A DNA stretch of 64,000 bases. It comes from Mytilus trossulus (lineage: Eukaryota). The stretch spans positions 38,688,001 to 38,752,000 of the forward strand of contig NC_086375.1 in assembly GCF_036588685.1 (NCBI RefSeq), read 5' to 3'. Both the position numbers and the translations under genes were made by a program. Shown here one piece after another: positions 8,035 through 49,413 of the stretch (the stretch's first letter is position 1; every line of letters begins with the position of its first letter). Under the pieces are notes generated by a model. It saw only the letters and a program-made list of their open reading frames with translations. It was not told the DNA's origin and searched no databases.

Positions 8035-9105
8035 TTACCCAGATTGTTCACTTGTAGAGGGCGCTTCCTTGTCTTGTTTCTCCGATTTCCGACTTGCTCC
8101 TTCCATCTTGACATTTTCGGGTCGTATTTTCACATCTTGTTTAAACCATGGAGAGCCAAGGAGCTCATATATATCTGGTCTGTCTTTATAATCATAGGAA
8201 AACAACCACAAAATTAAACAACGGCAATCATCTGAGACGTTTTTCTTAAACTTTTGCCATGGGAAGTTCAAACGTTTATGTTCCTCTAACACACCCTGAT
8301 TTCCTTTACTTTCATCGTAAGGCATTTTACCGGTAACAAAAATATACAAAATCACTCCAATAGCCCAAATGTCTGCTTTTCTAGGATCATAGGGCTCTCC
8401 TTTCAAAATTTCTGGAGCAGCATATGACTTTGAGCCACAGTATGTTCTGCTAAGATCCCGCATGCAGTCCTCTTTAACGAAACCAAAATCACATATCTTT
8501 ATCGTGTGGGTGCCATCTAATAGAAGGTTTTCCAGCTTGAGATCTCTGTGAGTAATGTTTTGTTCATGGAGATATCGTACTGCTTCACAAATCTGACGTG
8601 TCCAAGAACGAGCAATTATATCTTTGATAGCTCCATTACGCTGAATGTATCTCAAAACATCACCATTTTCTGCAAACTCTAATATCATATACACACGTCT
8701 ACTATCCTCGAAAATATCTAGCATACGAATAATATGAGGATGGCGAAGTTTAGGCCATATCTCCATTTCACGAGGAAGAAATCTGTGCTGAAAATCTTTC
8801 GGTGCTTTTGTTCTGTCTATTATTTTTACAGCAACTTTATCACGATCGCTCTTAAAGCAATGTGCATACTTGACTTTGGAATAACTTCCGCTTCCAAGAG
8901 TTTGTTTCACTAAATATCCTTTCTTTGCTAAGACAGCACGGTAAGTTGGTCTATAAGTTACGGTTTCATTCCTTGAGGATAGCGATCGTTTCACATCGAC
9001 TTGTTCGAGCTCTGATTGCATAAGCTCGAGTTCTGCCATTAATTTGTCAGGCTTCGATGAACTCTCCTCAGCCATCCTCTTCTTGGACCGCTTTTCAGGC
9101 AGCAT
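8035..9105 (-). CDS. TSSK: Testis-specific serine/threonine kinase (TSSK family), intronless CDS, 356 aa
   Basis: Continuous ORF with LGSGSYSKV, VAVKII, KAPKDFQHRFLPRE (TSSK-type), HRDLKLEN, DFG, TYCGSKSYAAPE and DIWAIG. First ATG at 9105 (alternative 9075). Minus-strand AATAAA at about 7779-7784. Confidence 0.93.
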   Translation of the reverse strand: MLPEKRSKKRMAEESSSKPDKLMAELELMQSELEQVDVKRSLSSRNETVTYRPTYRAVLAKKGYLVKQTLGSGSYSKVKYAHCFKSDRDKVAVKIIDRTKAPKDFQHRFLPREMEIWPKLRHPHIIRMLDIFEDSRRVYMILEFAENGDVLRYIQRNGAIKDIIARSWTRQICEAVRYLHEQNITHRDLKLENLLLDGTHTIKICDFGFVKEDCMRDLSRTYCGSKSYAAPEILKGEPYDPRKADIWAIGVILYIFVTGKMPYDESKGNQGVLEEHKRLNFPWQKFKKNVSDDCRCLILWLFSYDYKDRPDIYELLGSPWFKQDVKIRPENVKMEGASRKSEKQDKEAPSTSEQSG

Positions 9106-9380
9106 TAACAATTGTAGGACCTTTAGCTTGTTTAAAATTTACAACTTCCACATTCCTGAAGCTTGTTATTTTTTACTGCCTCTTCTGTTGACATCCAACT
9201 CCAAAACGAGACACAATGGTTAGAACCAAGAGCAACCAAAATGTCGGCGTCATTGTAGAACAAACGTCACTATGGAGGCTGCAGAGCAACGGACTTCCAA
9301 CAATGTCCAAGGAGCGTAACGTGATGCTACATTTTGCACCAAACATTATGTAAGAACTTATTGGATATGGCTGATTTAAA
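9106..9380. promoter_or_regulatory. Candidate bidirectional promoter between the two TSSK genes
   Basis: 275 bp between divergent ATGs; CRE half-sites CGTCA at 9248-9252 and 9265-9269; inverted CCAAT at 9360-9364. Confidence 0.55.
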
Positions 9381-9665
9381 ATGAACAAAGCATTGTCCGG
9401 TGGAGTTGGTGTGTCAGACGAGGAGATAGAACTCAGGAAACGAGGTTATGCTCTAGGAAGCATACTCGGAGAAGGTTCTTATGGAAAAGTTAAAGGAGCA
9501 TTTAGTGAGAGTAACCGGAAACGGGTTGCAATAAAAATCATTAACAGAAAGAAAGCACCAAAAGATTTTAGAGAAAAGTTTCTACCTCGAGAATTGAAGA
9601 TACATGCCAGCTTAAATCATCCAAATGTTATCAAGATGTACGAAATAATGGAATTTCACAATAAA
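9381..9665 (+). CDS. TSSK: TSSK-family kinase, exon 1 of 4 (gene 9381-17899, 317 aa)
   Basis: [30 protein letters not shown]; donor GTAAGT at 9666, phase 0. Confidence 0.92.
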
Positions 9666-9774
9666 GTAAGTATACTTTGCACTGTTTCAGATATTCATGT
9701 GTTTAGGTTTTACTTATCTTTGTTTTTCGGAGTTTGTTTTTGTCCGTATCTTTTGAATTTACTTGCCAATTCAG

Positions 9775-9905
9775 TAGATATAGGAAGATGTGGTGTGAGT
9801 GCCAATTTCTCCATCCTAATAACAATTTATAAATTAAAGTAAACCATTATAGGTCAATGTACGGTCTTCAACACGGTGCGTTGGCTCACACCGAACAAAA
9901 AGCTA
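9775..9905 (-). repeat. Interspersed repeat family A copy (intronic, truncated)
   Basis: Reverse complement of the family A 3' portion. Confidence 0.8.
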
Positions 9906-17587: not shown

Positions 17588-17899
17588 GTTTGTGCTTCCA
17601 TGCCTTATGATGATTCAAATTTAAAGAAAATGATAAAAGACCAAATAGAACGAAAAGTTGTATTTTCAAAGTCGAAAAAGGTAAACGCGGAATGTCAAGA
17701 TTTGATTCACAAAATTTTAGAAGCAAATGTCAAGAAAAGAGCGACCATTACAGCAATGGAGGATCATCCTTGGATACGTAGTCTAGACAAGGTCAAGGAA
17801 AAGGAAAAAGAAACCCATAGTTCTGAGAGACGTGTAGGAACAGAGGGAGAAAAGTTAAATTTAGACTGGGGTAAAAATGAGGTCAAATCGAGTGCATAA
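17588..17899 (+). CDS. TSSK: TSSK-family kinase, exon 4 (terminal)
   Basis: TTTGTAG|VCASMPYDDSN..ECQDLIHKILE..HPWI..TAA; AATAAA at 17982-17987. Confidence 0.9.
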   Translation, partial: VCASMPYDDSNLKKMIKDQIERKVVFSKSKKVNAECQDLIHKILEANVKKRATITAMEDHPWIRSLDKVKEKEKETHSSERRVGTEGEKLNLDWGKNEVKSSA

Positions 17900-20430: not shown

Positions 20431-20658
20431 TAAATAAAATTGAGAATGGAAAAGGGGAATGTGTCAAAGAGACAACAACCCGACCATAGAACAGACAACA
20501 GCAGAAGGTCACCAATAGGTCTTCAATGCAGCAAGAAATTCCCGCACCCGGAGGCGTCATTCAGCTGGCCCCTAAACAAATATATATACTAGTTCAGTGA
20601 TAATGAACGCCATACTAAACTCAAAATTATACACAAGAAGCTAACATTAAAAATAATA
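20431..20658 (-). repeat. Interspersed repeat family B copy
   Basis: AATAAAATTGAGAATGGAAA..GAGACAACAACCCGACC..CAGCTGGCCCCTAAAC; near identical to 49232-49413. Confidence 0.85.
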
Positions 20659-21782
20659 GCCTTCGTGTATAGCAGGACGATATCTGGTTTTACTGGAGTA
20701 TTTTCGATTATCGATTCTTTCTAATGCTTTGTGTTTGTATTTGAACGTATATATGTAATTTGAACTGCCACATAAAAACACTTATGACATGGATACCTTT
20801 CGAACAACATGTGTTTAGGGTTAAATTTATCGACAAACATAGAAAGCCAAACATTTGAGCAGACCTGGCACTTCTCCTATGGAGCTACCTAAATGATTTT
20901 CACAAGTTCCACTCAGTCTGATCATTCCAAACTTGCATTGTCTTGTTGTTGGCTGTGTCCTCCTTTCAAATTATGGAATCACATTTGCCTTCAGTATTAA
21001 AATAACAGCCAGAACTGTTTAAAGGTCAAATTTGCCTTTTGAAAGTTGCGAACTTAGCTTTCCATTTATGACAGACGAATCAATACATAAATTCTAATGT
21101 TCAAAAGTCTACTTCATTGGCATTTGAAATTAAGAAATATACCTGATATTGTCGAAGCCTTCAATTAAAGTATTAAAAATGTAGAATTATATTGATGGAA
21201 TTATCAGGCTGAGACAAATATCTATAACAGGTATCTACGCTCTCCAGAATCGATAAATCGTTATTTACCTATTAGTTTTCCAATACACAAACATATACCT
21301 GTTCAGCAGCTGTTTAGCAGGTACAGCAATTGAATTATCTCTGTTTTATACAGTACAGGTGAGCGGCACTACCACAGTCGAGTGGAAATCTGCAACTTTC
21401 ATATTTTGTGTCACATGAAAATTATTACGTTTTTACTCAACCGTAATCAACGGAATTCATAAATACATATCTGTGTTTCATAACGGAACTCTTTATTTTG
21501 ATGAAGATATGACCGATTCCCTTTTTTACAGCAAGATAAATTGTGGAAACAGGATTGTACCAGTATAAAAGTAAGATTCATTTTAATTTACATCACAATT
21601 TTCATACACGAAATATATATTTCAAGTTTTTTATTATTGTTACAGTACGAGCTTTTTTTTTTTTTTCAATGAATAGAAATATCGGTCAACTTATGCAAAT
21701 AACATTGACCGAATTGTTTACTAATTAACTGTAATGACGTAACGGTATCATACACAAACATATATCATATTATACTTTATAT

Positions 21783-22160
21783 TTACTGCTGAAAGTTAAC
21801 GATTTAATGAAAGCCCTAGGGGAAGATGTATATTCAAGTATGAACATAACACATGTAAATCGCTTTCCGTCTAAAATAGAAAACCGCCCCGGAATTATTA
21901 GAATAAGCTTTAGGGACCCTGGTGAAAAAAGTCTGGTTCTTAGAAACAAACGTAATTTAAAGGATATTGAACAGTACAAAAACGTTTATATTAGAAGTAG
22001 CAAATCACGCATTGAACGTTTAATAGAAATGAATGCCCGAGCAGTGCTTCGCAAGCTACCCGAAGGCGGTTCATTACGTGTGGATGCTAGTGGTCGTATC
22101 AAACCTCGGATTCAGAGAGTTCAAGATCAGCAGCAAGTTCGTAATGAGAATGGTGAATAG
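21783..22160 (+). CDS. LINE ORF1 C-terminal fragment (5' truncated)
   Basis: ..RFPSKIENRPGIIRISF..EKSLVLRNKRNLK..NVYIRSS resembles the RRM/CTD region of LINE ORF1 proteins; ends TAG at 22158-22160. Confidence 0.7.
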   Translation, partial: LLLKVNDLMKALGEDVYSSMNITHVNRFPSKIENRPGIIRISFRDPGEKSLVLRNKRNLKDIEQYKNVYIRSSKSRIERLIEMNARAVLRKLPEGGSLRVDASGRIKPRIQRVQDQQQVRNENGE

Positions 22161-25100
22161 GATTTAACCCGGTCGAACGAATCAATAAAATTAGGAACAA
22201 TTAACATATGTGGATGGACGAGAGACAATTGTGAATTAAGAAAAGGTATCTTCAAATCGATTAACTGTGATATAATTTGTGTTTGCGAAACGCATTTAGC
22301 TAAAGATGATGTAATTAATGTACCTGGATTTTCTTGGTTTGGTTTTAACAGAGTTGATATACACAAAAATGCACCGAAACCATCTGGCGGGATAGGAATT
22401 TTAGTTAAAACATGGATTCTTGAACATTATAACGCCTCAGTTATTGATAGATCATTCGATGGTATTTTAGGATTAAAATTTGAAAATAGAACGAATGATT
22501 CCAACTTTTTAGTATTTGCATGTTATCTTCCTCCTGAAAATTCATCTAGAGGCCGTGATGCTCCGAGTTTTTTTGCTCACTTACTAGCACAGATATATTT
22601 AAATGACGAATGTGATGCAATATTGCTTACAGGGGATTTTAATTCGAGAATTGGATCATTACCAGATACACTGAACGATATAGACTGTGTTCCTATGAGA
22701 AATACAATCGATAAAAGCATTAATCAGCACGGTCACGAATTTATAGACTTCCTCAATGAATCGAAATTTTGTGTATTAAATGGAAGATTTCAGGGTTGTG
22801 ATAATTTCACTTCTATTTCAACGAGAGGCAAATCCGTGGTTGACTATATTTGTGTTCCTCATGACGTGTTTGATAAATGTAAAAAGTTTGAAGTGCTTAC
22901 GGCGGAATCTATCGTTAATAACAATTCTTTGTTTGGATTATTAGGTGGGAAATCAAGACTACCCGACCATTCATTATTAATTACAGAGTTTACGGTCACG
23001 CATTTTGAACAGGCGGTTTCGACAGATAATGAGATGAAAAGAGCACGATTTAAAATTAACCAAATACCGTTAGACTTTATGAGTAGTGAGATACGGAGAA
23101 ATGCCTTGATGAATATTATCACTGACATCGAACACTCGCGAGAAACTCAGGAAAACATTGACGTGATTTATGAAAATTTATGCACCGAGATAATCGCAGA
23201 AATGACCGATAAAATCCCACAATATTGTAACTATAACTCTAAGAAGCGTTTTCGAACAAAAAAGCCGTACTGGAACGAAACTCTGACTGAACTTTGGAAT
23301 AAGATGCGTACATGTGAAAAAGATTTCGTCAAGTATTCTGGGAGGAGAAATATTAAAACAACTTTGCGCAATAACTACATGCAAGCTAGAAAATGTTTCG
23401 ACAAAAATCTAAGACGGGCAGAACGTACCTATAGAAGAACAGTAGCGGTAGAAATAGAGACAATGACGAGCAAAAATCCAACTGACTTTTGGGAAAAAAT
23501 ACGTAAATTAGGACCTAGAAGTAACAAATGTATACCACAGGAAGTCGTTGATGATGATGGTACTATAACTAGATCTGAACAAAAAGTTTTGGAAAGATGG
23601 CGTTGTGATTTTGAAAATTTATACAATGGTTTGTCGAGTGATGAATTTGATTCAGAACACTATACTCAAGCTAAAGTACACAAAAACCTATTAGAGGAAA
23701 ATATGGAGGACCCTTTGTATATGCCGAATAATCTTTTAAATGAGAACATATCAAGAAATGAAATAAATTCTATAGTAATGCAAGCGAAACTACGATCTGC
23801 AAGTGGATATGACGAAATACCATACGATGTTTTAAAATTTCCTGTAGTTATTGAAATAATACACAATCTTTTTCAACTGATTTTTGACTCGAGTTTAATT
23901 CCGTCCGCCTGGAGAAAATCCATAATTTGTCCTATATTAAAGGATCCGTCGTCAGATGCACGTATTCCGATGAATTACAGAGGAGTCAGTCTATTATCAT
24001 GTGTAAGCAAACTCTATAGCGCATTTGTTAACAAGAGATTATCAAGTTTTCTAGAGACTGAAAATATTCTTGCAGATGAACAGAATGGGTTCAGGAAAAA
24101 TAGGTCTTGTGAAGATCATATTTTTACCTTAAACAGTATTGTGAGAAACAATCACAACGTCTTTGCGGCATTCATTGACTTAAAAAAGTGCTTTGATTTC
24201 GTTGATAGAGACATGATGTTGTATAAGTTGCGCTTAAATAATATAGACGGCAAAATTTACAATTCAATTAAAAGCATTTATCAGCATACAAGCTCCTGTG
24301 TGCGTATCAACAATAAGCTGACGAATTGGTTTGACTGTAAATCCGGCGTAAAACAAGGGGATAACGTTTCTCCGACACTTTTCTCTATCTTCATCAACGA
24401 TTTGGTTAAAGAAGTAAATGATTTGAATTTAGGATTTGATATTAATGGAAGACAAATTTCACTTCTACTTTACGCTGATGATATTGTTATGCTCGCAAAA
24501 AGTGAGGATGAACTTCAACAAATGTTAAATGTGATTCATAGCTGGTGTAAACGTTGGAGGGTTCTGATCAACACGGACAAATCTAAGTGCGTGCACTTTC
24601 GTAAAGGACGTAAAAAGCAGAGTGAATTTAACTTTTCAATCGGCAATAATGCGTTAAAAACAGTGGACGATTATAAATACTTAGGTGTAACTTTTAACTG
24701 TAAAGGTAACTTTAATTTACATGCAGAGACTTTGGCTAAAGGTGCAGGAAGAGCCTTAGGTAAAATTATCTCGAAAATCCATAGTTTAAAGGATTTTGGT
24801 TTTCAGTCTTATGAAAAACTTTTTAATTCGTGTGTTACTCCAATCCTCGACTACGCATCTGGAATATGGGGAAATAGGAAGTTCCAATCAATAGACAACG
24901 TACAGAACAGAGCAATTCGATATTACTTAGGCGTTCACAGATTTGCACCAATTCTAGCACTGTACGGGGATACTGGATGGATACCAAGTCAGTTTCGGCA
25001 TTGGGTAAACATTATTCGCTACTGGAATAGGCTATTATCGTTTGAAGACGACCGATTAACGAAAGTGGTGTTCAATATGGATTATGATCGTTGCACAAAC

Positions 25101-25652
25101 AATTGGTGTAGTGACACTAAAGATATTTTCACGGAACTTAATATGTTACATTATTATGAAAGTAGAACAATGGTGGATTTAAAATCTTTTGAACAAATTG
25201 TACGAACTCATTACAGTGATATATGGAGAGAGTCCCTGATAAATAAGCCAAAGCTACGATCTTACTTAAACTTTAAAACAAACTTCGAACTAGAGCACTA
25301 TGTAAAACTAAATCTTACGAAACACGAGCGATCTGTGCTAGCCCAGTTTAGATGCGGGATATTACCGATCAGAATTGAGACTGGTAGATATATTGGGGAA
25401 CCAGTAGAAAACAGACTATGTCGTTTTTGTAACTCTCAAAATGTTGAAAGTGAGCTACATTTTCTTATAAACTGCACATTTTATAATGATATCAGACAAA
25501 CTGTTTTTAGCGAGATATTAATGGTGCCTGACTATACGCAACTAGATGACCAGGGAAAATTAACATTTCTAATGGTGAACCATCCAAGGAAAATAGCTAA
25601 ATACTTAGCAGCGTCACTTTTCCGTAGAAAACAAACAGTTTACTCTAGTTAA
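22161..25652 (+). CDS. LINE ORF2: AP endonuclease + reverse transcriptase + C-terminal CCHC, 1163 codons
   Basis: Frame is open from 22161. APE motifs: GTINICG, CVCETH, YLPP, GDFN, SVVDY, PDHS. RT motifs: NYRGVSL, QNGFRK, FIDLKKCFD, GVKQGDNVSP, YADD, YKYLG. Zinc knuckle: CRFC..H....C. No RNase H recognised. Confidence 0.95.
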   Translation, partial: DLTRSNESIKLGTINICGWTRDNCELRKGIFKSINCDIICVCETHLAKDDVINVPGFSWFGFNRVDIHKNAPKPSGGIGILVKTWILEHYNASVIDRSFDGILGLKFENRTNDSNFLVFACYLPPENSSRGRDAPSFFAHLLAQIYLNDECDAILLTGDFNSRIGSLPDTLNDIDCVPMRNTIDKSINQHGHEFIDFLNESKFCVLNGRFQGCDNFTSISTRGKSVVDYICVPHDVFDKCKKFEVLTAESIVNNNSLFGLLGGKSRLPDHSLLITEFTVTHFEQAVSTDNEMKRARFKINQIPLDFMSSEIRRNALMNIITDIEHSRETQENIDVIYENLCTEIIAEMTDKIPQYCNYNSKKRFRTKKPYWNETLTELWNKMRTCEKDFVKYSGRRNIKTTLRNNYMQARKCFDKNLRRAERTYRRTVAVEIETMTSKNPTDFWEKIRKLGPRSNKCIPQEVVDDDGTITRSEQKVLERWRCDFENLYNGLSSDEFDSEHYTQAKVHKNLLEENMEDPLYMPNNLLNENISRNEINSIVMQAKLRSASGYDEIPYDVLKFPVVIEIIHNLFQLIFDSSLIPSAWRKSIICPILKDPSSDARIPMNYRGVSLLSCVSKLYSAFVNKRLSSFLETENILADEQNGFRKNRSCEDHIFTLNSIVRNNHNVFAAFIDLKKCFDFVDRDMMLYKLRLNNIDGKIYNSIKSIYQHTSSCVRINNKLTNWFDCKSGVKQGDNVSPTLFSIFINDLVKEVNDLNLGFDINGRQISLLLYADDIVMLAKSEDELQQMLNVIHSWCKRWRVLINTDKSKCVHFRKGRKKQSEFNFSIGNNALKTVDDYKYLGVTFNCKGNFNLHAETLAKGAGRALGKIISKIHSLKDFGFQSYEKLFNSCVTPILDYASGIWGNRKFQSIDNVQNRAIRYYLGVHRFAPILALYGDTGWIPSQFRHWVNIIRYWNRLLSFEDDRLTKVVFNMDYDRCTNNWCSDTKDIFTELNMLHYYESRTMVDLKSFEQIVRTHYSDIWRESLINKPKLRSYLNFKTNFELEHYVKLNLTKHERSVLAQFRCGILPIRIETGRYIGEPVENRLCRFCNSQNVESELHFLINCTFYNDIRQTVFSEILMVPDYTQLDDQGKLTFLMVNHPRKIAKYLAASLFRRKQTVYSS

Positions 25653-27284
25653 CATTCTTAAACTTTTTTACAAACTTTAGATGAATTTATCATTATATGA
25701 ACTTTTACAATCGTTAATTCTTAATCTATAATTATCTGTATTTAAATTTAAATTGGCAATTGACACGTGATATTAGAACATTTATCATTGAACTAAAAGT
25801 AAAAGGTGACTTATTGGTCCATTGGGCCGGGTGTATTATATATGTAACTATATTTTGTACAAATTTATATATTTATGCTGACTTACACATGTCACTATAA
25901 TAAACAATTTACTTACTTACTTACTTACTTTATAAACATTGATAAACACCATGGCCTATAATTTACTATTTAATGTGATTGTCCAACGAATTCTTTAGAA
26001 TTTATCTTTGTAAAATATTTAGACGTAAAAAACATTTCATATTGGATATTTTCACGTCTACAAAATTTGATTATTTTTTTTTTTATGTTAAAACAAGAAA
26101 AATGATACTTGTTGACGATGAAATTGTACAAGAAGGATAAAATATAATTGATTGATTGCTGGTTGCTTTACTTCCAGTGGCAAATATTTCATGCATGTTC
26201 AGGACGATAAAGTATATATTAGTATAAAATGTATTTCAAAAATTATAATGAAATAAGAATTCCGTAAATGATATTGCGTAATTTTATCTACGATGTTGGC
26301 CTAGATAGGATATTAAACTGATCTTTAATAATTCATATGCATTCCATTATAACAATACTTTAAGAAAAAAAAACAATTTAGACCAAAATACTAAAATAAT
26401 AAAAATACTCTTTACTAAGAAGAATTGTATAAGCTTACGTGGGTATATAGTGTTTCTTAATCGATTTAATATTTGATCTAAGGAAAGTACTGAAAATATA
26501 AAGGTCTATACTTTCCCTTGGGGGAAACCACGCAGACTCATTAGAAAAAACACACAAAGAAAGCAATACAATTCGTGTGGTTTCAAATAAAATCTGACTA
26601 ACCAGTCTAAACCAGAGAAATCCTAACATCAAAACATATCTGCTTTTGTTATATTCCAGACCTATTTACTGAAAGTTGTACCAATGCTTAGTGTCCGTAC
26701 GAAAATCGGTCGAATAGAGTTCATTTTTTTAACTTCAACAGCCTCTCCCATTATTCATGAGTTTAAGAACGTTGTGGTTGATTAACATACAGTTCCTGTC
26801 CGAATTTCTATTTCGGCTTTGATTTGCGTCAACAACACAATTGGTGTACTACGAGGAACACAGAAGAGTTTCCTCGAATGGAAACTTTGCTCGTGGATAC
26901 AAATTGGCGACCGGATACCTGGATTTGTCTGCTATTACTGAACCTGGATTGTTAAACAGGATTGAAAAATATACATATCAAAACATGAATACATAAAAGA
27001 AATGCTTCGGCAAAACTATTAAATATACACAACAATTGCATGTGGGCACCAGTATTAATCTAAACTAATTTACCGGTATTATAAAGCGGATACTGTTTAT
27101 TATTCCTTAGAATCACAGCCTATTCCGTGTTTTATCTTTTTTTTTATATCTGATAATTGCTTTTGTATTCTTTTAACCATACAACTGGTTAATCTTTCAT
27201 TCATGAAGTAACAATAATAATATGCTAGTTTTAACTCGCGCAGTTTTATTGTCCTTTTTGTTTAATTGCTTAATCTCTTTTTTT

Positions 27285-29553: not shown

Positions 29554-30163
29554 GTAAGTAACTTACCACTATATAGGAGTCTACTATTGTGTGTATGCAC
29601 TTTAGACTCTTTCATAACCTTTCCTTTACAACTAACTCCTTCCTAAAGCATGTAGATGAAATATTGGTTTCTATTACTATAGAATTATTTTCTTTATCAT
29701 ATTGCAATTATTTAGCACCTTAGCTTCATTTAACGTGTTTTTGTGTTGTTCGGTGTTTAGATATAATGCATTTTCAAACAAAAGTTATTGGATCTGTAAA
29801 ACAGAAGTTTTGTTGATGATTAAGCGGCCGGGAGTCATATTTGCTTCTTTTAGAACAACTTTGCTACTGCAATATACATTGGGTTTTTTTTATGGTATTT
29901 TCTATAAACCCTATAAAATATATACATATATTTACTACCTAACACTTAACAAACTCGTATGGTATTCTGCGAATAGATATACATGTACGCAATATGGATG
30001 ATCTCTCGATATTTGCATTTTGACAACTAGACAAAATCAATTCATCATTCCCTGAAACTAAAATCCATATTAAGATAAACAAAAATGTTTGAGTAAAATC
30101 ATTCATATACATGTATTGATATTTCCAGGTGTAAATACTCAAACCAACAATGATATTCCGGAA

Positions 30164-31264
30164 ATGGCAAAAGAAAACCTACATTTAAAATTTTTGTTAT
30201 TGACTTTAGTCGTTGCCCTTGCATGTTTAATTCTCACAGTTGTAAACGATTTGCAATTTCCTACTGACATACAACATGGAAAACAACATATACATAGCCG
30301 AATTATGTTAGGGAAACCCGAAAAGGAACCAAGAGAACATCATCATCCAGTTTATAAAAGAAAAATCCTGTCAAAAACAACTTATCCTATTGTGGTATCC
30401 AGACCGTATAAAATTAACAATAAGAACATTTGTTCTGGTGTTGATAAAGTTTCGTGTATAGTCATGGTGCATACCGCGCCACAGCATTTCGAAAGGAGAA
30501 TCCGAATGCGAGCAACTTGGCTAAACTCAACACACTACAGTCCCGAGAGTGTCCGGGTAGTTTTTCTGTTGGGATTAGTAGCTGATCCAGTTTTACAAAT
30601 AAAATTAGAATACGAAAGTAAAATTTATAAAGATATAGTGCAAGGATACTTCATAGATTCATATAGAAATTTGACTAACAAAGGTGTAATGGGTTATAAA
30701 TGGATTACTGAACATTGTAGAAACGCTGAATTTGTTGCTAAAATTGATGATGACGCTTTTATAAACTTCTTTAAATTATTCGAAGAGATGTCATACTTGA
30801 AGGAAAAGAAGAAATATATCAAATGTAATAAAATTTCTAAAGGTTCAATGAAAATCATACGAGAAAATGACAGCAAGTGGTTTGTTCAAAATGACGAATT
30901 CAAAGATATGAAAAGATATCCACACACTTACTGTAGTGGTTTTACAGTGTTTCTGTCAACAGACTTAGTACCAATGCTATATCATGCCGCCATTGGGTCA
31001 CCATTTTTCTGGGTGGACGATTTTTATCTATTCGGATTACTTCCTTCCAAAATTCAGGGTGTTATACATGATGGCCTTCGACCAAATTTGACGTTGAGAT
31101 TTCCAGAAGGTTTTAATTGTTATCAAGAACAGGGTAGAAAATGTCAGTATGTAGTGATGCCGGCTAAAGATAAAGAAATATACAGAATGTGGACGGCTGT
31201 TATAAGAGATAGAACGCAGAGTATATATGGCAATTACTACATGAACCTACCGACTAATGCATAA
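30164..31264 (+). CDS. Beta-1,3-galactosyltransferase-like protein (GT31), type II membrane, 366 aa
   Basis: N-terminal TM segment; motifs R..R.TW, VVFLLG, Y.DIVQG.FIDSYRNLT.K, KIDDD, YPHTYCSG, WVDDF. Confidence 0.92.
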   Translation: MAKENLHLKFLLLTLVVALACLILTVVNDLQFPTDIQHGKQHIHSRIMLGKPEKEPREHHHPVYKRKILSKTTYPIVVSRPYKINNKNICSGVDKVSCIVMVHTAPQHFERRIRMRATWLNSTHYSPESVRVVFLLGLVADPVLQIKLEYESKIYKDIVQGYFIDSYRNLTNKGVMGYKWITEHCRNAEFVAKIDDDAFINFFKLFEEMSYLKEKKKYIKCNKISKGSMKIIRENDSKWFVQNDEFKDMKRYPHTYCSGFTVFLSTDLVPMLYHAAIGSPFFWVDDFYLFGLLPSKIQGVIHDGLRPNLTLRFPEGFNCYQEQGRKCQYVVMPAKDKEIYRMWTAVIRDRTQSIYGNYYMNLPTNA

Positions 31265-35500: not shown

Positions 35501-37768
35501 GTTTCTAGACGTTGATCCTGAAGATTTTTAAAGTTAACATTACTATACAGATTGCTATACGACATGTAAGATAAAAGTGTCACCCAAAATTACACACTTG
35601 ACTGTCGTTTGCTGCACTTCATATGTTACCATGCAGATCTATTACATAACTGTGAAAGAGACAACAAAGAAACAGTTCAATTAAATAACATGTGTGTTTA
35701 GAAACACCGAAAAAGACCCATGTTTATGTTTTACCTCAAGTGTCCTTGAATAACTATACAGCGTATCACACAAGTTTTACAATACTGTAATAAACCTCTA
35801 TTGCGCATATACATGTACATTTAACTAATATTATCGTACTTTCTATGCACTACTATTTTTTTCCCTTAAAAGTAGTTTATTACATGTTTTATAGTTCCAC
35901 TTGTGCAGATACATGTATTTGAAATGTTCGGACTGATTTGTCTATCAGGTAAATTGGGTTGTAATATATCCGATATGATCTGAACAAGAAAAAATAATAA
36001 CTTTAAATTGGATTTTAAAGGAAATATTACGAATTTGAAAGGATTGCATTAGATTTTAAGGTTAGCAACTTTTATATATCTGATTGTTTACGAGATCGAT
36101 ACCTCAAAATTTAGTGTGTTTTTAGAGGGATCAGTCAAGCAACTTATTCGTATTCTTGAGAAAAAAAGATGCTTGTATGGATTAAAAAAATGTAATATAT
36201 ACTTTTCAATGTCGTTGCTAAATATACAGATTTTACACAATAAACTTAAATCCTTTTTGGGCTTTAATAGGTAATTCAAACAGGTTATTGTATCTCACAT
36301 GCATGGGTGACTAAGCCAACTGTGTCATTCTCAATATACTGTAGTCCTGTAATCATGGTAATGTCAGGGCCATACATTTTGTAGTTGTACGTATAGTACA
36401 AATAACAATGTTTGTAAAGAAAGAGTTATACTCTTACTACCAGTAGATTAATGTAATGCTTTCCTAGCTTTATATCATGAATTATAGTCTTATTTGTAGT
36501 ATATTTATATTTTGGTGATAGTGAAAACTATCATGATTGGCAGTTATTCAGTGTTTATTTGTCTTTTTATTTCCAGGATATGTAAGCTAGACAACAATAT
36601 GTTGAACAGAAATTCAGTTCTTTTGAAGATTTTCATATATTAAGTATTAATTGGTAAGTGGTTTGATTAAGTTTATTTAACAAATTTTAAATATCTACCA
36701 AAACATAAAAATAAAAATATCTTGAGTGCTTACCGATAAGCATTTCCTTTATAATTTTTTATGGCTTGCTACTTATCTTAATTTCCGGAAAACAAAATTC
36801 AACAAGGAAATTGCTAGATATCAAGGCAGAAATCATTCAGGAAGTCTTATAAATTGTTTGAGATAATTCATAGATTTATGAATTTTAAATAATATGTTCT
36901 TGGAAAACATGCATCTCGTTACTCTTCCTTGGTATCAATCAAATGTCAAAACAAAAATAACACACGGAACAATTGAATATTTATATAGCATTCCTTTTTC
37001 CTGTTTACTGGATATCACGTTTAATAAAACAAAACCAATCGTCTAGAGGATCGATTTTTGACTAATTTTCATTGTATGTAACGCAAGTACCAGACGTTTG
37101 GATGCGTGTGTTCCGGGTAGGAGGAGGAGGAGGGCTTCATTTATACTGTATTCTTAATTTTTTAGGGCATTTGTCTATATTTTATTTCTTTTGTCCATTA
37201 TTATATATTCTTTACATTTAAGCACATTAATTATAATTCTTCTTTAAGCCAATTTCTTTATATATTTTTGTTGAATTTTCTCTATTCCTGATTCTTTTTA
37301 ATCTTTTTTTTTCTATTTTATAAGCGATATTAAAAAAGATATATGAATACATTCAATCACAAAAATTCATTTAAAACATGTTTTCGAACCAGTTGCCCTA
37401 TCCGCTTCATGCACATTGTTCAAATAGAGTTACCTCCCGTTTGACAGAAAAAAACTTTAATAGTACATGATGGTGGCGAAATAATTAACGTTCAGAAAGT
37501 ACTTAAAATAAAACTGTCAAGTCATTTTGTGAGAATGTTGTCAATATTGCATATTCGATCACTTTATCTGATTTGACCATCCCTCAACTTATCTTCAACC
37601 ATTTTCATTATTTATTGTTTACTTTTAAAATTCAAAGTGCGAATCCATCTTAAATATCCTCATTAGTATTGGCATTATAAACTGTCATTTAAGGTATACA
37701 TAAATCAGAATAGTTCTTTTTCTTTCGACAGAATTCACCATATCACTACAAGATACTCACTTAACAGA

Positions 37769-38866
37769 ATGAAGAAAGAAACACAGCATATAAAGTTTTT
37801 GCTATTAGTCGTATTCGTGGCACTTTCGTGTGTCTGTGTAGCAATCATCAACGATTTAATGTCACCTTTAAGTAACCCTTTATTAATAAATGGCGCCCAC
37901 GTAAATAAACGCTTTATGCTATGGATGGAAGAGCCAACGCCAGAGACTCATACTACTAGTCCGAATACTCGATCAATTAGATCAAAAACGATTTACCCTA
38001 TTGTGTCACAGGGTTATAAAATAAACAACAAGGATATATGCAGAGGAGTAGAAAAGGTGTCTGTGATAGTTATTGTCCACACAGCTCCGAGCCATTTCCT
38101 ACGTCGAGTCAGAATGAGAAGTACATGGCTTAATTCTACATATTATAGTCCAGAAAATGTTAGGGTTGTGTTTTTACTCGGTTTAGTTCCTGATTTGATA
38201 ACACAGGTTAAACTTGAGCAAGAAAGTAAAATATATAAAGATATAGTGCAAGGAAATTTTATTGATTCTTATCGGAATTTAACTCATAAAGGAGTTACCG
38301 GATATAAATGGATCTCAGAACATTGTATGAATGCTGAAATAGTTGCAAAAATAGACGACGATGCCTTTATTAATTTCTTCAAATTGTTCGAAGATATGTC
38401 AGATTTGAAACACAAGAAAAGGACAATGTATTGCAACAAAATCCCTAAAGGATCAATGGCAATCATCCGTAAAAATACCAGTAAATGGTACGTCGATGAA
38501 TACGAATTTAAAGACATGAAATTATATCCACATACGTATTGTAGTGGTTTTACAGTATTCATTTCTATAGATCTAATACCCATGTTATATCGTGCAGCTA
38601 TTGGATCGGCATTTTTCTGGGTAGATGATTTTTTTCTATTTGGACTTTTACCATCTCGTATACCCGGTGTTGTTCACGAAGGTATACGACCTAATTTAAC
38701 GTTCATGCCAAAAGAGGCATATACTTGTTATATACGTTATGGTAAGAACTGTCAATATCTTGTTTTTCCTGCGAAGGATAGAGAGATAAGTAAAATGTGG
38801 CTAGCTATGACACACGATAGAAAACAAAGTATATATGGGAACTTCTATATGAATTTACCAGCATAA
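37769..38866 (+). CDS. Beta-1,3-galactosyltransferase-like protein (GT31), tandem paralog, 365 aa
   Basis: Same motif set as 30164-31264 and colinear along its length; acceptor TTTCGACAG ends at about 37731. Confidence 0.92.
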   Translation: MKKETQHIKFLLLVVFVALSCVCVAIINDLMSPLSNPLLINGAHVNKRFMLWMEEPTPETHTTSPNTRSIRSKTIYPIVSQGYKINNKDICRGVEKVSVIVIVHTAPSHFLRRVRMRSTWLNSTYYSPENVRVVFLLGLVPDLITQVKLEQESKIYKDIVQGNFIDSYRNLTHKGVTGYKWISEHCMNAEIVAKIDDDAFINFFKLFEDMSDLKHKKRTMYCNKIPKGSMAIIRKNTSKWYVDEYEFKDMKLYPHTYCSGFTVFISIDLIPMLYRAAIGSAFFWVDDFFLFGLLPSRIPGVVHEGIRPNLTFMPKEAYTCYIRYGKNCQYLVFPAKDREISKMWLAMTHDRKQSIYGNFYMNLPA

Positions 38867-43761: not shown

Positions 43762-44177
43762 CTGCAAAAAGAAATATAATATATAGGATTCTGTATTTGA
43801 GAACAAGTTATGAACATTTTTTTTTAGGAAGGGATCCGTTATGTTTTAATTTCACAGTTCTTTTAAAGAGAAGTTTGCTGAAATTTGATATACTGTGTAG
43901 AATGCTATTTTTTCTTCAGTTTTTACTGTTTCTAAAAACTCATTTTGTAGTTAATGCTTTAATATATGTCATTTTCACTTGATAGATAATTACAGATAAC
44001 ATTTCAAATTGAGCTCCTTATGATTATTTTCGTGTAAAATAAAATATATAATGTTTCGACCATAACTGTTTCAAGACCGTTATATAATAAGACCATACTA
44101 CAATAGATTTAAAACTTGAAATTTTTCCACTTATTACATAAAGAATTTATTCTCATCTACATATATATGAACATTAC

Positions 44178-44447
44178 CATAGTGATCAAATGGGCTAGCA
44201 TATGTAGGACAAGGGTAGCCGAGATCTTGGAAATATTCCACCATTTGTCCTGACTTTCCGAAGTATACCATCTCTCCCATACTCAGGAGCCCTATCTTAT
44301 CAAACATTTTAAAGACATCAGAACGAGGTTGGTGAATTGTCAAAATCACTATTTTACCATTGTGAGCAATGTCTGATAAACTTGACACAAGATGGCGTGT
44401 TGTACAACTGTCAAGTCCAGTAGTTGGCTCGTCCAGGAGAAGGATTT
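44178..44447 (-). CDS. ABCG5: ABCG5-like transporter exon 5
   Basis: Walker B ILLLDEPTTGLD, H-loop TIHQPRSD, GYPCP. Confidence 0.92.
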
Positions 44448-45320
44448 CTGAAGAAGAAAAGTTTGTATTTTAATATCCTTACTTTACCATGCACTTTTTT
44501 GTGCGTTAACGTTTTCACAACAGTTTTTAAAAGTCCCCGCAACTTATTTTGGTGTTGCTTCTAGAATGTTGAGAACTGATGAGATACATAGATTCAGCGA
44601 AAGGAATACTCTAGAATAACTTAAATTCGACCCATTAAACTATGAGAGTAATGCATAATAATGCCTACAAAATAGCATCAGAATAGCAATGGAATATCAA
44701 TATAGATAAAGTGTAAGTAATATGTTTGTCGTAAAGGTTATTTCCTCCAAGTAAGTTATGCCAAAGTCAATGTTTAATTTGTTAAATCAGTTGTAAATAT
44801 CTCAAAATCATTTGGTTAATACAATTCCCAGAGGTAATTAATTGTATTCTTCAAAATGTTTCAGAATATGGTACAATGAACTTCATTTAAAATTTTAACA
44901 TTTTATCCTGTTTAGACTGAATATTTTCTGCATTTATATGCATGAACATTTTAAGTCTGAGACAAAGACTATCTTATTGCATTAAATATTGAAACCCAAT
45001 TGAAAGATTTTCTTGGAACACTATCTTGTTTTTAAAATTGTGATTACATGCGAGTTAACAACCATATATCTAAAAATAAAAGATGTTGTATGAGTGTCAA
45101 TAAGACAACCCCCATCAAAAAATAAAAGATGTTGTATGAGTGTCAATAAGACAACCCCCATCCAAGTCACAATGTATAAAAAGTTACCAATCAAAGGTCA
45201 ACCATAAAGCTAGTATGTAATCTGAAGATATTTGTTTTCAATCACAACAAACAATTTCAGTCAATCCAGAGCTCTTTTGTGTTTTTCTTTGTGTGTGAAT
45301 ATCTGTTCAAAATTACTCAC

Positions 45321-49085: not shown

Positions 49086-49231
49086 AGTACTTTGTTGTAG
49101 ATTCTTTCATATGATAATTGTTTCCTTATCAATGTAACATACCGATACCCTTAACTCTAAAGGAACCATAATTATTATTCAAGAATGCATCAATCTTTTC
49201 ATTTTGGCATAGTTTGAATAGCTGTTCTATT

Positions 49232-49413
49232 TAATAAAATTGAGAATGGAAATTGGGAATGTGTCACAAGAGACAACAACTCAACCATAGAAAAAAACAA
49301 CAGCAGAAGGTCACCAACAGGTCTTCAATGTAGCGAGAAATTCCCGCACCCCAGAGGCGACCTTCAGCTGGCCCCTAAACAAATATATACTAGTTTAGTG
49401 ATAATGAACGCCA
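49232..49413 (-). repeat. Interspersed repeat family B copy
   Basis: Near identical to 20431-20615. Confidence 0.85.

Follow-up and report, generated by a model that had tools for sequence, protein, structure and literature searches.

A conserved in-frame stop codon and a co-varying, predicted long-range RNA helix suggest translational readthrough in RTE-X LINEs of a mussel genome

Background

The route from the RNA of a two-gene LINE to ORF2p is a long-standing open question, and the cases tested so far use reinitiation. In the termination-reinitiation described for mammalian L1 and silkworm SART1, ORF2 depends on the translation of ORF1 (PMC5972666, PMC11485995). Readthrough of the ORF1 stop in a LINE is suggested in print, as far as we could find, in a single case: Group 3 of the non-LTR elements of Paramecium, where ORF1 and ORF2 share a frame and readthrough was suggested from consensus sequences (PMC5405496). 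Our literature search, which was of full texts outside Repbase Reports, the notes of Dfam and the bulk of subscription titles, returned nothing on the RTE-X junction or on LINE readthrough stimulated over a long range.

Two viral systems are closer in their RNA signals. In the tombusvirus CIRV, readthrough of a UAG (p36/p95) requires a pairing that spans about 3.5 kb (PRTE-DRTE), and this pairing alternates with a hairpin used in replication (PMC3234231). The stop context called type III is UAGGGV, UAGGUA or UAGGAU; downstream structure is said to be needed, and readthrough stimulators are placed after spacers of at least 8 nt (PMC13517186).

We describe here a LINE copy found in a stretch of 64,000 nucleotides from Mytilus trossulus, the whole of which we call the window and to which all positions refer, together with its relatives in the same genome and elsewhere.

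Results

The LINE copy of the window

The window carries on its forward strand (21781-25929) a 5'-truncated RTE-X LINE copy that is 99.8% identical across 4153 bases to a full-length copy, L032. It has the attributes of an APE-type non-LTR retrotransposon: an APE endonuclease and a reverse transcriptase in ORF2, 5' truncation, a short-repeat tail ((ACTT)n, 25908-25929), a target-site duplication of 9 bp (left 21773-21781, right 25926-25934, each overlapping an element end) and no LTRs. What is left of ORF1 (21781-22160) is about 126 C-terminal codons with a TAG at the end, which, from their translation, the comparison with L032 and a model of the full ORF1p, correspond to the RRM/CTD part of an L1-type ORF1p. 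The preliminary description had seen this frame run through GAA-TAG (22155-22160) and stay open from 22161 to 25652, with APE motifs soon after the stop and a first in-frame ATG well inside the endonuclease, and the sequence bears it out on each point. ORF2 has 1163 codons; GTINICG begins at codon 12, the catalytic Asn is codon 15, and the first ATG (22695-22697, codon 179, at a position unconserved across families) falls within the APE domain (22197-22862; Pfam PF03372, Exo_endo_phos, codons 13-234). An ATG near 22161-22190 is absent. The reverse transcriptase domain lies at 23967-24695 (Pfam PF00078, RVT_1, codons 603-845, E 4e-38), and near the C-terminus of ORF2 there is a CxxC...H...C motif (25419-25475), which we take to be a zinc knuckle; the Pfam search of the LINE found no protease domain. 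The ORF1 stop and the codon that follows it (22158-22163) read UAG-GAU, a Beier-Grimm type III readthrough context (PMC13517186).

The full-length copy (L032:1333-6276) starts with a short leader, which is followed by an ORF1 with 358 open codons upstream of the stop, the identical TAG and an intact ORF2. A DNA search of the genome gave at least five copies of the family with the junction, 99-100% identical; the family is young, as had been supposed. TAG-GAT is present in five out of five. This, together with the retention of an in-frame stop in 42 families (below), makes the stop a consensus feature and rules out a nonsense mutation specific to one copy.

On its sequence, the element belongs to the RTE-X (RTEX) clade. 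We base this assignment on its near-identity in the reverse transcriptase to M.edulis_309_LINE, classified as RTE-X by its authors, because our own tree held no labelled references: the window copy differs by two residues, counted by eye, from the displayed part of that sequence in the supplement of PMC10294476. Another family of the genome, F00, matches the M.edulis_90_LINE consensus at the junction, TAG included. Both M. edulis elements are listed as RTE-X in Table S7 of Martelossi et al. 2023 (PMC10294476), who acknowledge some discordance between Proto2 and RTE-X, and the passages of that paper that deal with them do not discuss the junction or the translation of ORF2.

ORF1p of these families is, according to its predicted structure, of the L1 type. 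The model, built from 26 families (pLDDT 73), shows a long coiled coil, an RRM and a C-terminal domain, and its ten best Foldseek matches are all human L1 ORF1p (best E 5e-5); sequence searches of Pfam and PDB with ORF1 gave coiled-coil noise alone and no match to L1 ORF1p. The family endonuclease profile matches residues 8-119 of human L1 EN. The tail of ORF1 varies from about 3 to more than 100 residues among families: it has 3-10 residues in the 9-codon families (named, like the other groups below, for the distance from stop to catalytic Asn), and forms a long Arg/Gly/Asn-rich stretch of up to about 110 residues just before the stop in F07, F08 and other 7-codon families.

An in-frame stop across the families of the genome

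A protein search of the genome (1.3 Gb, 541 contigs) gave 150 scored matches among 413 candidates. Together with the window, 140 long stretches and 10 shorter loci made up a set of 151 loci, and 148 of these included the N-terminus of the endonuclease. They formed 49 clusters at 85%; seven of these, each consisting of one copy with a truncated or decayed junction, were dropped, leaving 42 families. Most statistics below were computed on 41 of them; F42, a family with a true in-frame TGA, is included in the stop count and its pairing was tested separately.

All 42 families have an in-frame stop 7-18 codons ahead of the first catalytic Asn of the endonuclease. This stop is TAG in 38, TAA in three and TGA in one, whereas the stops that end 22 intact ORF2s are TAA in 13, TAG in five and TGA in four. 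The TAG bias at the junction (38/42 against 5/22) has a Fisher p of 7e-8 if families are treated as independent; they share ancestry, so p values overstate their independence. As TAG terminates five of the 22 intact ORF2s, a reassignment of this codon in the host is ruled out. Identity to the window drops among families to about 34-38% in ORF2 and to 15% in ORF1. The conserved C-terminal block of ORF1 is in the frame of ORF2 in 117 of the 127 copies where it was found, and 40 of the 41 clusters have this as their most frequent frame; the frame is kept although the length of the ORF1 tail varies, as does the spacer from stop to Asn (7, 8, 9, 15, 16, 17 or 18 codons).

No start codon accompanies the stop in most families. 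An in-frame ATG between stop and Asn occurs in one family of 41, and the first Met of ORF2 lies anywhere between -2 and +318 codons. The codon directly after the stop is near-cognate in two of the 41, being mostly GAC, GAT or GAA; an in-frame CTG, GTG, TTG or ACG ahead of the Asn is present in 18, and the remaining 23 have no strong near-cognate codon there. In the nine 7-codon families six codons separate the stop from the Asn, and the first of them aligns with Ile8 of human L1 EN, where the first strand starts; synthesis of ORF2 would therefore have to begin at about the first post-stop codon at the latest. The exact type III context is found in 10 of 41 families (8 TAGGAT, 2 TAGGTA) and TAG-G in 30, and base counts at positions -24 to -1 before the stop revealed no conserved motif.

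A sense codon at the junction is absent from every intact copy. None of the 148 genomic copies has TGG, and the three with another sense codon (L132, L050 and L088) have a broken ORF2, which rules them out as natural stop-free fusions. Three long database proteins (P0018, P0021 and P0022) can likewise be dismissed as fusions, as linkers rather than ORF1 precede their endonuclease; that of P0021 resembles the post-stop linker of the metagenomic locus L206 described below. We thus consider it confirmed that the in-frame stop and the AUG-less ORF2 are a clade-wide feature and more than chance.

Long-range complementarity next to the stop

The preliminary description had recommended looking for a conserved stem or pseudoknot within 100 nt downstream of the stop. 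This expectation failed: in local folds of about 100-150 nt past the stop (pseudoknots being outside explicit folding) none of the 41 families has z below -2, the mean is +0.4, and the window itself gives +3.1. The structure predicted instead is a long-range pairing between bases from about +8 onwards, counted from the stop, and a complementary site located 3.2-3.9 kb further 3'. In the window the 5' arm lies at 22167-22184, with a core (22167-22174) that starts at +7, and its partner lies in the 3' UTR at 25814-25832 (core 25825-25832), where it overlaps a small local hairpin.

The partner has a conserved site in each of the three junction groups. In the 15-18 group, to which the window belongs, it falls in the 3' UTR at 64-76 nt from the end; it lies within ORF2, about 50-60 nt before the ORF2 stop, in the 7 group; and within ORF2, about 270 nt before the stop, in the 8/9 group. 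When the whole downstream element was scanned without guidance for partners of bases +5 to +22, the best helix fell on the site typical of the group in 27 of the 41 families (two of these being copies in which the motif has a shifted offset), and this site was among the top three helices in 36. In a test against the 3' region, which was picked as the test region after the results of that scan, 34 of 41 families had a post-stop 18-mer ranking in the top 5% relative to 98 controls of equal length; this 18-mer beat its shuffles (at most 3/60) in 32 families and paired better there than with every other region of the element in 29. The top-5% test was missed by seven of the 41, and F12 and F41 are without any pairing. 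A sliding 14-mer peaked only at starts +5 and +9, with -16.7 and -16.5 kcal/mol; windows clear of the arm gave -8 to -11.

The two arms also change together. The arm of a family pairs more strongly with its own partner than with partners swapped within its group (0 of 20000 permutations). In the co-variation count, which left out six families with the helix elsewhere and two without helix, paired positions were +9 to +12 in all 16 families kept of the 15-18 group, +9 to +15 in all seven of the 7 group and +10 to +13 in all ten of the 8/9 group, and two-sided (compensatory) changes are present in all three. The predicted helix is thus fully paired from +9 or +10 in every group, with co-variation. 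Its length is 8-15 bp; that of the window's family is among the weaker ones (8 bp core, -17.6 kcal/mol, equalled by 2 of 98 controls), and the TGA family F42 has 14-15 bp with a 3' UTR partner in 3/3 copies. Helices of 14-15 bp are likewise predicted for F22, F26 and F38. In many families the helix would be able to begin at +5 to +7, nearer than the 8 nt of the viral spacer. Arg stands at codon +4 in 23 families, 20 of which encode it by CGG, a codon that accounts for 93 of the 1473 Arg codons found elsewhere (6%); the conserved CGG near +10 sits in different frames in different groups.

Co-folding of the window sequences predicts that the helix displaces the local 3' UTR hairpin (-34.0 kcal/mol against -20.7 for the two strands alone). 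Separately, we noticed by eye, and then folded, a 3'-terminal element (25805-25896 in the window) whose ends are complementary, change together among the three junction groups and stand just ahead of AATAAA and the tail; they likely form the stem recognised by ORF2p. In the window, the fold of this element by itself is non-significant (z -1.0).

Relatives in other organisms

Viral, metagenome and MAG collections provided 161 loci, 75 with an endonuclease match and 42 that include the Asn; these LINE loci are likely host DNA in the respective assemblies. All 17 loci with an ORF1 match have it in the ORF2 frame, with TAG in 16 and TGA in one, and a Met lies between stop and Asn in two of them (L206 and L285). 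Of another 23 loci with an upstream stop and no ORF1 match, 17 have a Met before the Asn, as in ordinary LINEs. Pairing was examined in 15 loci chosen from other organisms and reached the top 5% in eight; among the loci of the 7 type, six of seven have the partner 50-54 nt before the end of ORF2, matching the mussel genome. Two metagenome contigs, L206 and L204, have open low-complexity linkers (262 and 70 codons) between the in-frame TAG and the endonuclease, and in L204, where the Asn is 71 codons off, the 5' arm still tracks the stop.

In a tree made by a quick method with 70 of 80 rows and rooted at the midpoint, the 7-codon and the 8/9-codon junction types each form one clade across organisms (SH-aLRT 99), and the 15-18 type has a value of 85. 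In four distant LINEs outside the three groups (L305, L308, L313 and L226; 26-28% identity) a long open frame likewise leads into an in-frame TAG-G, with no Met from there to the Asn, and three of them (L305, L313 and L226) have a post-stop helix with a 3' site. Judging from these sequences, the in-frame stop arrangement may be older than the clade, or recurrent. The search of viral contigs gave one distant RT.

As a side observation, intact animal LINEs occur within records of prokaryotic MAGs (L282-L296, L313, L323 and others, some titled Sedimenticola sp.), likely as host contamination, and one such MAG LINE protein, P0078, is named as bacterial.

Discussion

How ORF2p could be made

The preliminary description had proposed either readthrough of the ORF1 stop or a start of ORF2 without AUG. 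The comparative data favour this pair of options, and readthrough appears to be the better fit. What we observe is a common frame, a biased stop, a missing AUG and complementary segments that co-vary; we prefer readthrough because it predicts a fixed frame, a bias to TAG, the lack of a start codon and a helix placed some 8 nt beyond the stop. We think, therefore, that ORF2p is probably made as an ORF1-ORF2 fusion, by minority readthrough of the conserved UAG stimulated by the predicted long-range helix. Most ribosomes would stop and release ORF1p, providing the excess of ORF1p that a LINE particle requires. With the UAG in the A site, the helix would stand at the mRNA entrance of the ribosome and let a near-cognate tRNA compete with the release factor. 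The enzyme would be made only from RNAs with an intact 3' end, ribosomes translating ORF2 would melt the helix, and the fusion could be tied into ORF1p trimers via its coiled coil. In the group of the window, competition between the helix and the 3' UTR hairpin could act as a switch between translation and reverse transcription.

Such a mechanism might be generalised. A whole clade of LINEs from bivalves and other marine animals would make a Gag-Pol-like fusion by readthrough that depends on a 3.5-kb helix; as the partner has moved at least twice and the stop-side arm has stayed at +8, the helix would serve to check that the RNA is of full length and to toggle between translation and target-primed reverse transcription, as a switch of the tombusvirus type. 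For this wider scenario we find the case, drawn from comparison of sequences, about equally balanced for and against.

The helix does not by itself select readthrough, because a structure past the stop is required for reinitiation in SART1 as well, and ORF2 of L1 can be translated AUG-free (PMC5972666, PMC11485995). The same helix might thus hold a post-termination ribosome, which would reinitiate without AUG at or just past the stop and make ORF2p as a separate protein; a restart at the first post-stop codon would preserve the frame equally well, and the 18 families with an in-frame CTG, GTG, TTG or ACG are in line with it. It does not predict the TAG bias, however, and meets with a near-cognate codon directly after the stop in two families only, with no conserved overlap of stop and start, and with 23 families that have no strong near-cognate codon ahead of the Asn; an AUG overlapping or adjoining the stop, as in SART1 or caliciviruses, is not what the junctions contain, the single family with an in-frame ATG before the Asn being the exception. 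We consider such a reinitiation unlikely, though it deserves to be kept in mind. The pairing could also serve RNA folding, packaging or reverse transcription rather than decoding; ORF2 would then be translated from an AUG further on, or by leaky readthrough that needs no stimulator. LINE proteins usually bind the 3'-terminal element, and in the window's group the partner sits within that element. But the 5' arm is fixed at about +8 in three groups whose partners occupy three different places, and it tracks the stop, not the endonuclease, in L204, while a downstream AUG is unconserved and would remove catalytic residues of the endonuclease; in our opinion a role outside decoding is very improbable.

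Removal of the stop from the RNA seems less probable still, to the point of being hardly credible. It could occur by splicing, the TAG|G being an acceptor that joins an upstream AUG exon to ORF2, or by A-to-I editing that turns UAG into Trp. The G after TAG in 30 of 41 families does look acceptor-like, and UAG is a favoured triplet of ADAR, in line with editing. Yet an upstream pyrimidine tract is absent (mean 0.36, maximum 0.56), TAA and TGA families occur, no genomic copy has TGG, and the stop is outside the predicted helix. Two contigs whose RNA status is uncertain, X1 and X15, span the junction; both keep the stop, and no joints are listed for them. None of the records listed as containing the sequence is registered as RNA. 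In four raw RNA runs, sampled at 6-18% of each, zero reads crossed the junction.

Comparison with described systems

The closest parallel is CIRV, with which the mussel LINEs share the UAG, the type III context (exact in the window's family, and in 10 of 41 families overall), a pairing of about 3.5 kb to a 3' element, a partner position that varies among relatives and competition with a 3' hairpin (PMC3234231). They differ in that the proximal element of CIRV is a bulge in a local stem-loop, whereas the RTE-X LINEs have no local stem and a helix directly past the spacer, and in that two LINE groups place the partner inside ORF2; the effect in CIRV was demonstrated by experiment, and the helix of the RTE-X LINEs is predicted from sequence. 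The Gag-Pol of the gammaretrovirus MoMLV resembles our case in its UAG-G, a structure after about 8 nt and an excess of structural protein over the enzyme fusion (PMC13517186), but there the structure is a local pseudoknot and a protease frees the enzymes, and in the window LINE no protease domain was found. Group 3 of Paramecium, similar in the shared frame, is a separate ciliate clade, and the passages of PMC5405496 that treat it mention no stimulatory element. Mammalian L1 and SART1 have in common with these LINEs a bicistronic RNA and the L1-type fold of ORF1p; L1, however, has a 63-nt spacer and an AUG, and SART1 an overlapping stop and start, all of them absent from the RTE-X families.

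If our preferred reading, readthrough helped by the helix, is correct, it would be a third route of LINEs to ORF2p, would extend readthrough stimulated over long distances from plant viruses to animal genomes, and would offer a simple means to restrict enzyme synthesis to intact RNAs. It would also imply that most ORF2 proteins of this clade carry a truncated endonuclease in their database annotation; of 120 homologues, the majority begin inside or right at the endonuclease domain. The conserved in-frame stop and the co-varying helix provide an exact handle for mutational work, of 8-15 base pairs.

Other features of the window

Two Ser/Thr kinase genes stand head to head at 8035-9138 (reverse strand) and 9375-9842 (forward strand), their starts about 300 bases apart; they resemble, we presume, testis-specific kinases. 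A Pfam match to the C-terminal part of Pkinase at 17588-17899 (forward strand) may be a last exon of the kinase gene on that strand, and the LINE lies 4 kb beyond it. Downstream of the LINE there are two intronless, paralogous ORFs of about 390 aa on the forward strand (30074-31264 and 37667-38866), which from their translation look like beta-1,3-galactosyltransferases, and on the reverse strand an exon of an ABC transporter (44134-44469) with the motif LLLDEPTTGLD, presumably ABCG-like. Finally, a short repeat, probably a SINE or MITE, is present at 20445-20580 and 49218-49330, in L169 and beside other insertions; its ends, as translated, read GN..KETT / NNSRRSPTGLQC.
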